From NCBI GenBank assembly GCA_002269645.1, contig NIVC01000089.1:248001-312000 (forward strand): a stretch of 64,000 bases of DNA, given 5' to 3'. The translations under genes and the position numbers were made by a program. This document shows, in pieces, positions 57,830 to 60,518 of the stretch. Numbering within the stretch: position 1 is the stretch's first letter; every line of letters starts with the position of its first letter. The notes under the pieces were generated by a model. The model was not told the DNA's origin. It saw nothing but the letters and a program-made list of their open reading frames with translations, and ran no database searches. This DNA comes from Macrostomum lignano (Eukaryota).

Positions 57830-60518
57830 AGTATGCAGTATCGCTCACAGCAGATATGGTTGATATTCGAGCGTTTGAACGTTTGATGGAATAATTTCTG
57901 TGCTCTGCGCGGACCTGCACGCCGATGATTTTGTCGCGGCTAAACTGACTGCTGACAACATGTTGCTGACCGTCAATGTCGATTTGGGGGAGAATTTCTC
58001 CAATTGCGTCACCCACTCAGACTGTGCCTGCCAAATGGCCGACTTTGTGGCAGTGGGCTCGAGCCCGCTGAATGCATTTTTTCGCCTGGCTGAGCACAAC
58101 ATTCCGAGGCGGCGCCATAGTTGCGGCTCACAATGCATCTGACTACGATGCTATTTTGCTGCTCGGCGCTCTACTCAACGGCCTGGCCAAGAAGCGGCCA
58201 CAAGTGGTGTTTCAAGGCAGCCGGCTAATGTGCATGACGGTTGACAAGTTGGTTTTTAAAAACTCGCTCAACTTTATGCCAATCCTGCTTGCACAATTCC
58301 CAAAGCGCTGGGCCTTGCAACAAAGCTGGCCAAGGGGACCTTTCCCCACGAGTTCAACAAGCCGGCCGATTGGAACTACGTGGGCCCCTACCCGGCTATT
58401 GATTACTACGGCGGCAAGGCCAACAAGGAATACGACTCCATCTGTGCATGGTTGGCCTCGCGACAGGGCGAGTTGTTCAACCTTAATCGGGAATATCTCG
58501 ATTATTGTTTGAGCGACACAGTCCTGCTTCGCGAGGGCTGTGTAGCTCAAGTACAGGGCGATAATTGCAGACATTTGCGATGGGCTTGAACCATTTGTTC
58601 AGGCTGTCATTCTCGGCCGCAAGGTGAAAGGCTTCGATGAGGCTACAAACATTGTTTTGCAGTTTCATGGCTGCTTCTACCATGGCTGCGAGCAGTATAT
58701 GCCCGACCAGGATGTTGTCCACCCACTAAAGCGGCAGCCTCTGAGCCACATCCGCCACGAGACTGAGCGGTTCACTCGCGAGTTGGAGCGGCATAATTAC
58801 AGTGTTCGTGTCATTTGGGAGCATGAATATGACACTGTATTGGCATCGCAGGCTGATTTTATCGCCGCAACTGCCCATCTGCGTGCACCGCTCAAGATGG
58901 AGGATGCGCTCTACGGTGGTCGAGTAGAATGCTTCATCCCGCATGCTATGGCCAGTGATACTGAGGCGCTCAAATATCAGGATGTGGTGAGTAGTGATAC
59001 TACTAATGTAGTAGAATATTTTGCAAAATATGAAATACAGTTTATGAGAAATACTGTTTTATTTCAACTGGCAGGTCTCTCTGTACCCGACGGTACAATC
59101 AAAAGACGCGTACCCGATTGGCCACCCGGTGCACCACCCGACGCCGCAGACACTCGACTCTGACGCGCTGGCCAGCTACTTTGGCATTGCCGAAGTAACA
59201 GTGCTGCCGCCGTCAGATCTGCACATTCCGCTGTTGCCATACAGGGTGCAGAAGAAGCTCATTTTTGGGCTTTGCCGCACCTGTATGGAGCAGCAGCAGG
59301 AGCAGTGCAGCCGCGAGTGCTGCAGCCACTCAGACCAGGAGCGGGCGCTGACGGGTACCTGGGCAACGCCGGAGCTGCGCAAGGCCTTCTAGTTGGGCTA
59401 CCGTCTGGAAGCCGGGCACGCGCTAGCCTACTGGACAGAGCAGAGGACCGGCCTGTTCAGCGAGTCAACACCTTTCTCAAGCTGAAGGCCGAGTCGAGCG
59501 GCTCCCCCGGCATGACTGACGATGAGCGGGCTGCCTAAATTGCCGATTTTTACTCCAAGGAAGGCGTCAAGCTGGACGGGGTCGAGCCCAACCCAGGACT
59601 TCGCTTTGTGGCGAAAATCTTTTTGAATTCGAAAGTAATCATAATTCTGCTTGTTAAAATATTTATTTTACTAACAGTAGCAGCACAAACCCAATATTTT
59701 CACAGGCTCTGGGGTAAATTCTGTCAGCGCGATGACCTGAGATTGTGTCCAGCTACGAGGACTGGCTCGCCCGGCTGACCGATCCGAAACTCCAGGTCAA
59801 GGCCTGCGAGCCGATTGGCAGCGAGTTTATGCTGCTGCTGCTGGAGTACCGGCACCGCTACTTTAATCAGCGGCCGTTCCGCTACTCCAACGTACCAATC
59901 GGGGTCCTTACGACCAAGCAGGCCCGACTGCGCCTGCCTGTACGAGGCCTTGGAGGGTCTCGGCGAACGGGCCATTTATTGCGACACCGACTCGTAAGTA
60001 TTGGCTGGATAGATTCTTTTAGAATTGATTACGTATAGACATGTAAATAAGATTTAGTACCTGACTAATTGCCCACCCACACACACAGGGTCGTTTACCG
60101 CCATTCCGAGGGCCAATGGGAGCCGGCCCATGGCACGAGCCTCGGAATGTGGACCGACGAGGTGCCTGCAGGCAGCCAAACGACCGACTTTGTAAGTGGA
60201 GGGCCCAAGCTCTACACTTACATTGTCGAGGATGCGGCCGGTGCCCGGAGCCAGGTCCTGAAATGCAAGGGCATTCACCTGACGCCAGAGATTTGGGAGC
60301 GCAGTGAGGACCTGCGCAGCGCCCTGCTGCACGGCGGCTCTCTGCAGCTGTCGCAGTTTCAGTTCAGGCGCGACAAGACGTCTTGTACCATCCATACGAT
60401 CAATATGGACAAGACGTTTCAGCGCGTGCTGACAGGGACTACTCAAATAGCGCCTACCTCCAGGATGTTCGGTAGGGCCTTTTTCCATCGCTCTCGCTCA
60501 ACCGAGTTTCGTAGCTAA
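57830..60518 (+). pseudogene. Protein-primed family B DNA polymerase (Polinton-type), decayed, with three spliceosomal-type introns
   Basis: Exonuclease motifs HNASDYD, SLNF, KGTFPH, YCLSD; inserted nuclease-like FHGCFYHGC...VIWEHE; ALYGGR; YQDV^VSLYP; YPIGHP; GTWATPE; AKIFLNS^LWGKF; YCDTDS^VVY; GGPKLY; KCKG. In-frame stops at 59390 and 59536 plus several frameshifts. The 5' boundary is approximate. Confidence 0.9.

Follow-up and report, generated by a model that had tools for sequence, protein, structure and literature searches.

Spliceosomal introns in the catalytic motifs of a Polinton-like DNA polymerase gene of Macrostomum lignano

Introduction

How does the DNA polymerase gene of a Polinton-like element come to carry an insert in each of its three catalytic motifs, given the usual view that the core genes of Polintons lack introns and the practice of choosing intact elements by their open ORFs in surveys? 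The question is raised by a 64,000-nucleotide stretch of the flatworm Macrostomum lignano genome (contig NIVC01000089.1, positions 248,001 to 312,000; hereafter the window). The initial annotation read the inserts as introns, concluded that a lineage of Polinton-like elements depends on the host spliceosome for an active polymerase, and explained their placement by homing-type elements or by selection for splicing-gated replication. Intein sites in the archaeal family B polymerases also fall in motifs A, B and C. Maverick core genes are described as intronless in vertebrates (PMC8097293) and nematodes (10.1101/2022.07.12.499685), a description that fits neither the M. lignano element nor one full Polinton found here, L087, which has one intron in motif B.

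Results

The three motif inserts

Re-reading of the sequence bore out the coordinates, lengths, ends, phases and AT-richness first given for the inserts. All lie on the plus strand: intron A (58987..59074; 88 nt, phase 0) in motif A, intron B (59631..59705; 75 nt, phase 2) in the serine codon of motif B and intron C (59994..60088; 95 nt, phase 2) in the serine codon of motif C. Their GC contents are 0.28, 0.28 and 0.36, compared to about 0.55-0.60 in the exons. The exon joins read YQDV^VSLYP (motif A), KIFLNS^LWGKF (motif B) and YCDTDS^VVY (motif C), and the joined sequences agree with motifs A, B and C in 150 database relatives, as expected if excision restores the motifs. Motifs B and C also agree with PDB 1xhx, in a weak match (E 0.023).

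A DNA search of the genome gave 78 matches, the best 30 of which were fetched; 27 are distinct over the compared region and three represent the window's own insertion. Inserts A, B and C occur at identical junctions in all 30 loci, so that the intron positions are indeed common to the genomic copies fetched. Introns A, B and C have GT donors in 30/30, 25/30 and 28/30 loci, and AG acceptors in 27/30, 29/30 and 30/30. Intron B of the window copy begins with GA, and intact copies had been expected to show GT there; GA is private to four window-type loci, while 25 of the 30 have GT and one has GC. In the fetched loci the motif introns carry a branch-like CTAAY sequence and a pyrimidine tract, and neither target duplications nor repeats were found at their junctions. 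Retention would break the frame or add a stop in 17/30 (A), 26/30 (B) and 30/30 (C) loci. Intron A was also used as a query against the genome, and all 35 of its matches lie inside polymerase copies. No intronless copy of the spliced polymerase type was found among 56 scored of 305 candidates, and the interval 51500-62000 gave no Rfam match to a group I or II ribozyme core. The three inserts are spliceosomal introns with U2-type features.

Intron A is unusually conserved. Its variability among copies is 0.036, about four-fold below that of third codon positions (0.152), and a similar dip in diversity occurs in an intron-free exon. A 6-bp hairpin (AGTAGT/ACTACT) adjoins its donor and resembles the end motif of the element; this hairpin is absent from the second subfamily described below. 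A 9-mer is common to intron A and the terminal inverted repeat (TIR), which by a rough estimate is within chance.

Splicing and selection

Junction-spanning sequence was found in contigs from runs X1, X5 and X6, which skip exactly 81, 74 and 80 nt of reference copy L035 with GT..AG ends. These runs come from three studies and are presumed to be RNA, their nature not being on record; the contigs carry no expression level. A comparison run, X15 (kind not on record), covers the introns at a depth of about 800 and has none of these joints. The database protein ALD16274.1 (967 aa) is already joined across all three motif sites, and database proteins 97% identical to the second subfamily, along with others near the window's subfamily, are assigned to Macrostomum lignano.

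The polymerase exons are under purifying selection, with dN/dS of 0.121 in exon A-B (10 copies) and 0.074 in exon B-C (22 copies). Gap openings per 100 nt number 2.0-4.5 in introns and 0.3-0.4 in exons, a 5-15-fold excess in the introns. The family therefore spread with a working, spliced polymerase. Fixed introns, exon selection and spliced contigs together uphold the view that a Polinton-type polymerase lineage depends on the host spliceosome.

Organisation of the polymerase gene

The annotation was right about the three motif introns and incomplete in its count, as the gene consists of seven exons and six introns, three of them in the N-terminal region outside the catalytic motifs. These upstream introns, u1, u2 and u3, measure 1167 nt (in L035), 79 nt (82 nt in the window) and 83 nt. 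Spliced joints were obtained for u1 (a GT..AG joint in run X1) and u3, and none for u2 among the joints listed for the contigs on L035. An exon of about 650 codons, spanning zinc-finger, exonuclease and VSR-like regions, is free of introns. PF03175 is matched by P0152 (E 1.4e-43) and by exon A-B of the window (E 2e-4). In Polinton polymerases the N-terminal part carries terminal-protein and vOTU domains; in a sequence alignment the N-terminal exon matches the N-terminus of the L087 PolB (E 1e-9), with the Cys motif kept.

A second subfamily, 71% identical over exon A-B, has introns of unrelated sequence at the same six positions. Two database ORFs of 61-69% identity are delimited exactly by sites A and B, and a third stops at C; the introns are therefore old and stable in this clade. 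Other relatives are 45-53% identical over exon A-B. The clade's nearest neighbour in the tree is P0006, an uninterrupted ORF of 806 aa that is presumed, from the ORF alone, to lack introns.

The window copy

The element occupies 51555 to 61863 and is bounded by TIRs and a 6-bp target-site duplication (TSD), TGTGTA, at 51549..51554 and 61864..61869. The left TIR (51555..52008, plus strand; 455 bp) begins ACTACT and is 95.6% identical to the right TIR (61418..61863, minus strand), which ends AGTAGT. The features between the TIRs are on the plus strand. The left arm (52009..53496) holds a TATA-like promoter region and the CAG-rich 5' leader of the polymerase gene, has no long ORF and is 84% identical to the left arm of copy C260. 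A degenerate LINE (53497..57597; Pfam RVT_1, Exo_endo_phos_2), seen as a homology gap to C260, replaces exon 1 and most of u1, of which a 3' remnant (57598..57636) of the 1167-nt intron in L035 is left. Intron u2 follows at 57688..57769 (GT-AG), in the same position as in the second subfamily. The exons leading to motif A (57770..58986) contain part of the N-terminal region, exonuclease motifs II and III and a VSR-like domain, whose nuclease motif reads FHGCFYHGC (58663..58689); such a domain is described for the pPolB2 of marine animals (10.1101/2023.08.22.554363). Two deletions have shortened this part, one of about 1.6 kb at 57980 that removed u3 together with Exo I, the other of about 180 bp at 58602. 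Exon A-B (59075..59630) is broken by stops at 59390 and 59536 and by frameshifts, exon B-C (59706..59993) is frameshifted, and the homology of the last exon (60089..60433) to other copies ends about 45 nt before their stop codon. The aligner counted two stops and seven frame breaks in the window polymerase. With its LINE insertion, deletions (about 1.8 kb), stops and GA donor, the window copy is dead.

Three subfamily-1 copies (window 53497-57597, L035:1-3515 and L135 at about 2070-8018) each carry a LINE in the CAG-rich 5' region of the polymerase gene. In element coordinates the three insertions differ by no more than about 130 bp, which may reflect a preference for microsatellite targets. 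Elsewhere in the window, a LINE at 42166-47428 has an intact endonuclease-RT-RNase H ORF of 1244 aa, preceded by one of 468 aa. On either side of the element lie the two arms of a perfect inverted duplication, 882 bp or more in length (50224-51105 and 63119-64000), which holds an apparent small spliced gene with a signal-peptide-like start (about 63665-63900).

A probable reduced Polinton derivative

Elements of this family measure 8.5-10 kb when free of host insertions and internal deletions. The TIRs, 455 bp in the window, reach about 0.9-1.3 kb in subfamily 2. A 6-bp TSD was present in all five elements read at both junctions, and 23 loci have 16 distinct right flanks. Seven elements were traced over their whole length between the TIRs, apart from 1.8 kb of the polymerase gene in one of them, and inside them tblastn found no match to integrase, capsid, ATPase, protease or PZ, the single PZ-like marker serving as the probe for the minor capsid protein. 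The same markers find integrase, capsid, ATPase and protease genes just outside one followed element, and the genome has at least 109 integrase and at least 95 capsid matches elsewhere. Blanks with Pfam Pox_A32 and Peptidase_C5 in the genome were discounted because its own Polinton ATPase and protease score below those thresholds. TIR spacings of 15-18 kb hinted at full Polintons, but the two that were fetched proved to contain a tandem array and a LINE; the elements followed do not include C538, C2525, C2455, C1001 and C221, where the spacings are 15-34 kb.

The element ends in 5'-ACTAC(T/G), which differs from the (AGT)2, (AG)3 and (AC)3A motifs listed for vertebrate Mavericks (PMC8097293) and is still a short repeat as in protein priming. 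The first description as a Polinton-like element thus holds for the PolB, TIRs and 6-bp TSD, and fails on the absence of integrase, capsid, ATPase and protease, the different end motifs and the six introns. We consider it very probable that this is a reduced Polinton derivative with its own VSR-type protein-primed polymerase, made from a seven-exon, host-spliced mRNA, which copies itself from its ACTAC ends and borrows an integrase, perhaps capsids too, from full Polintons of the same genome. Given the 6-bp duplication, a Polinton-type integrase would be supplied in trans, and the element would replicate by protein priming and depend on a helper Polinton. The full, intronless Polintons of the genome, whose polymerases are single ORFs in the three types read, are likely the helpers. 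No helper with ACTAC ends was found, the single full element with its ends read beginning AGTAGT.

One subfamily-2 element (L130:6041 to L131:4695, G000:C4072) interrupts the major capsid gene of a full Polinton and is flanked by a 6-bp duplication; this one case may reflect chance or targeting of a helper. Subfamily 2 also has two extra ORFs facing away from the polymerase (L126:5798-7462, minus strand), which were not found in subfamily 1; one is PC4-like (atlas score 0.88, a lead) and the other matches no family. Among the copies L009/L031 (G000:C2786), L007 and L008, one has been cut down to 4.4 kb by internal deletion, has extended inverted ends and keeps its TSD intact, and others contain part of the polymerase gene duplicated in inverted orientation. 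The M. lignano genome harbours three or more additional families of protein-primed polymerase that lack introns (L038/L128, L039, L040); L038/L128 is a full Polinton with, by eye, a TBP-like ORF (L128:6268-6897).

Introns in other Polinton polymerases

Spliced alignment was applied to 85 outside loci, comprising 80 kept of 429 confirmed metagenome matches and five viral loci. Candidates were filtered on GT donor, low GC, pyrimidine tract and frame disruption, a filter set after the candidates had been seen. It passed 16 of 57 gaps (three of them the M. lignano control) and dropped 41 that were GC-rich, in frame or poor in splice signals; two of the dropped gaps, at the VSR site of L054 and the LG^D site of L064, resemble genuine introns and were lost at the pyrimidine cut-off only. 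This leaves 13 credible introns in 8 of the 85 outside loci, which had been ranked on an unbroken A-B stretch, so that introns inside that stretch would be hidden. The eight outside sites comprise one three codons before the motif A aspartate, the motif A serine, the motif B serine, tryptophan and glycine, two VSR-motif glycines and one other. L087, with its single intron, is a full Polinton with integrase and capsid. The credible motif introns are 66-158 nt long and none holds an ORF. L054, L055, L061 and L064 show two separate VSR-motif intron sites, four codons apart.

Counting the M. lignano family, 9 of 10 distinct sites fall in motif A, B, C or VSR. Their mean conservation percentile is 0.88, a value reached in 0 of 200,000 random draws; collapsed to five regions the bias has P 0.004, and against a protosplice-site null it is little changed (P 0.004-0.009). 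These tests cover a region that excludes the three N-terminal introns of the M. lignano gene. Five of the eight outside sites are within four codons of a motif A, B or C anchor residue (binomial P 2e-6), and the three M. lignano motif sites taken alone give P 7e-5, in line with the claim of motif placement beyond chance.

Intron-bearing Polinton polymerases extend beyond the M. lignano lineage. A single clade of intron bearers is rejected (AU p 2.4e-49, five changes) on a tree of 55 rows and about 180 residues in which the group was fixed after the first tree and gain is not distinguishable from loss. Introns are not alike across sites and lineages, only 4 of 66 pairs reaching a nominal p<=0.03. 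The comparison with other PolBs thus finds the same motifs hit at other offsets and on separate branches, which argues for repeated gain under a force acting on conserved DNA. Database ORFs P0035 (a cluster of 443 members), P0154 and P0188/P0189/P0200 begin or break off at motif A or B and show read-through of an intron-like kind. Such ORFs point to putative large intron-bearing Polinton families in other assemblies, the introns of P0186, P0002, P0154 and P0035 being read from ORF ends.

Discussion

Origin of the motif introns

Because introns appear repeatedly at conserved DNA and homing precedents have been published, we favour nuclease-driven homing, as gain or as retention, as the explanation of motif placement, though we rate it at slightly under an even chance. 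Homing-type nucleases carried by Polintons would cut the conserved motif DNA of related elements, where a catalytic motif would tolerate just one kind of insert, a short, cleanly spliced intron. Such an intron would destroy the cut site, be copied into intron-free alleles during repair and thereafter be lost solely through exact excision. The present introns would be former spliceosomal homing introns that have lost their nuclease, or would be carried along by a nuclease that works in trans, for which the VSR domain of the polymerase itself is a candidate.

Several published observations make this plausible. Ordinary spliceosomal introns show no bias to conserved sites and homing elements do (PMC2814812), mirusviruses have spliceosomal introns with HNH, GIY-YIG and VSR-like nucleases (PMC12768974), PRP8 of Bathycoccus has an intron and an intein at one codon (PMC3749507), and Polinton polymerases contain nuclease insertions interpreted as remnants of homing (PMC11161782). 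The low diversity around intron A fits a conversion tract, but a comparable dip is seen in intron-free exon sequence. Against homing, no intron contains a nuclease ORF and the introns are unlike each other; against motif targeting, three of the six introns in the M. lignano gene are outside the catalytic motifs. The homing origin first suggested is plausible, is backed indirectly by the other lineages and by the published homing introns, and lacks a nuclease gene in the introns themselves. For the whole explanation, a reduced Polinton with homing-driven motif introns, we see the chances as evenly balanced.

The same placement could arise with no nuclease if introns were gained at random in an intron-rich host, those in variable regions being deleted or absorbed while motif introns, which need exact excision, accumulate. 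This requires no extra parts, accounts for the short ORF-less introns, their dissimilarity and the lineage-specific offsets, and is backed by a published exact-removal argument for retention (PMC2814812). That source also reports that ordinary spliceosomal introns show no such bias, and three introns, one of 1.2 kb, have been kept in the variable N-terminal region, so that pressure for compactness looks weak. We regard this retention filter as unlikely, though the strongest of the rivals.

Selection for splicing-gated replication, in which motif introns are kept so that active polymerase arises only in splicing-competent cells or states, draws on the damage that retention would do to most copies, on the low variability and donor hairpin of intron A, and on the introns that mark latency genes in an algal endogenous giant virus (10.64898/2026.10.09.758095). 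Gating would not need a motif position, since any upstream intron would serve equally and the gene has three. The hairpin is missing in subfamily 2, and spliced forms occur in all three presumed-RNA runs with no regulation visible in contigs that carry no levels. This part of the initial annotation is left unsupported, and we think it improbable.

We give the same low weight to sequence context or chance, whereby conserved Gly, Ser, Trp and Lys codons provide protosplice sites and a handful of old introns shifted by a few bases in different lineages. The outside junctions often read AG|R or G|G, and the sites span no more than 6 codons in motif A and 4 codons in motif B. However, in 10 intronless loci the conserved columns hold no excess of protosplice-like sites (mean percentile 0.51), M. 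lignano sites B and C are TC|G, and intron bearers are nested among intronless relatives.

An artefact, with the inserts being small footprints of transposons or mistakes of assembly in copies that are dead, might be suspected from the broken window copy and its GA donor, but is ruled out for practical purposes by the exact GT..AG joints in three runs, fixation in 30/30 loci and a second subfamily, the lack of target duplications and the restriction of all intron A matches to polymerase copies. An introner origin was also rejected, the introns being unlike one another and without junction repeats and intron A being confined to polymerase copies, as were group I or II introns and inteins, given the absence of an Rfam match and the stops or frame breaks in most copies.

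Relation to known systems

The closest counterparts are the Polintons/Mavericks with VSR-type pPolB2 of marine nematode and mollusc origin (10.1101/2023.08.22.554363), which share the protein-primed PolB with a VSR-like insert, the TIRs and the 6-bp TSD. Unlike these, the M. lignano element has six spliceosomal introns, a length of 8.5-10 kb and 5'-ACTAC ends, and is without integrase, capsid, ATPase and protease. Mirusvirus shintrons (PMC12768974) are likewise GT-AG introns in key genes of nuclear DNA viruses with recurrent targets, but they encode a nuclease and lie mostly in virion genes, whereas introns of the M. lignano type are ORF-less, 66-158 nt long and placed in the polymerase motifs of an animal element. 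Inteins and group I introns (PMC2814812) also occupy the most conserved codons, with several neighbouring sites per motif; the motif introns differ in being too short, not self-splicing and removed by the host spliceosome. Introners of dinoflagellate Polinton-like viruses (PMC12166617) are spliceosomal introns inside integrated Polinton-group elements too, but are dispersed repeats mostly gained after integration, whereas the M. lignano introns are fixed in both subfamilies and move along with the element, and the genome matches of intron A are confined to polymerase copies. Cytoplasmic linear plasmids and transpovirons (PMC11161782) are likewise Polinton-derived, with the capsid module lost and a replication protein kept; the M. 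lignano element is instead nuclear, spliced and integrated with 6-bp duplications.

In the literature available to us, outside Repbase and supplements, we found neither this M. lignano family nor spliceosomal introns in the polymerases of animal Polintons described, and the accessible portion of PMC4604429 makes no mention of the element. New here are the spliced-contig evidence, the selection seen over many copies, the conservation between subfamilies, the cross-lineage test of motif bias and the polymerase-only layout.

Implications

Where intact elements are chosen by their ORFs, spliced and reduced families are therefore discarded as fossils. Having a polymerase only and no integrase, the element suggests that helper-dependent lifestyles exist among Polintons. 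Because placement in motifs is repeated and independent, the way in which introns are gained becomes open to experiment in a laboratory animal that has dozens of young copies as well as relatives free of introns. It is conceivable, though we hold it to be doubtful, that introns of animal Polinton polymerases were gained and spread by nuclease homing or as immunity inserts at nuclease targets, and that their carriers in M. lignano belong to an undescribed class of polymerase-only satellites parasitising full Polintons. If true, homing would give rise to new spliceosomal introns in animals, with conflict between virus-like elements as the driving force.
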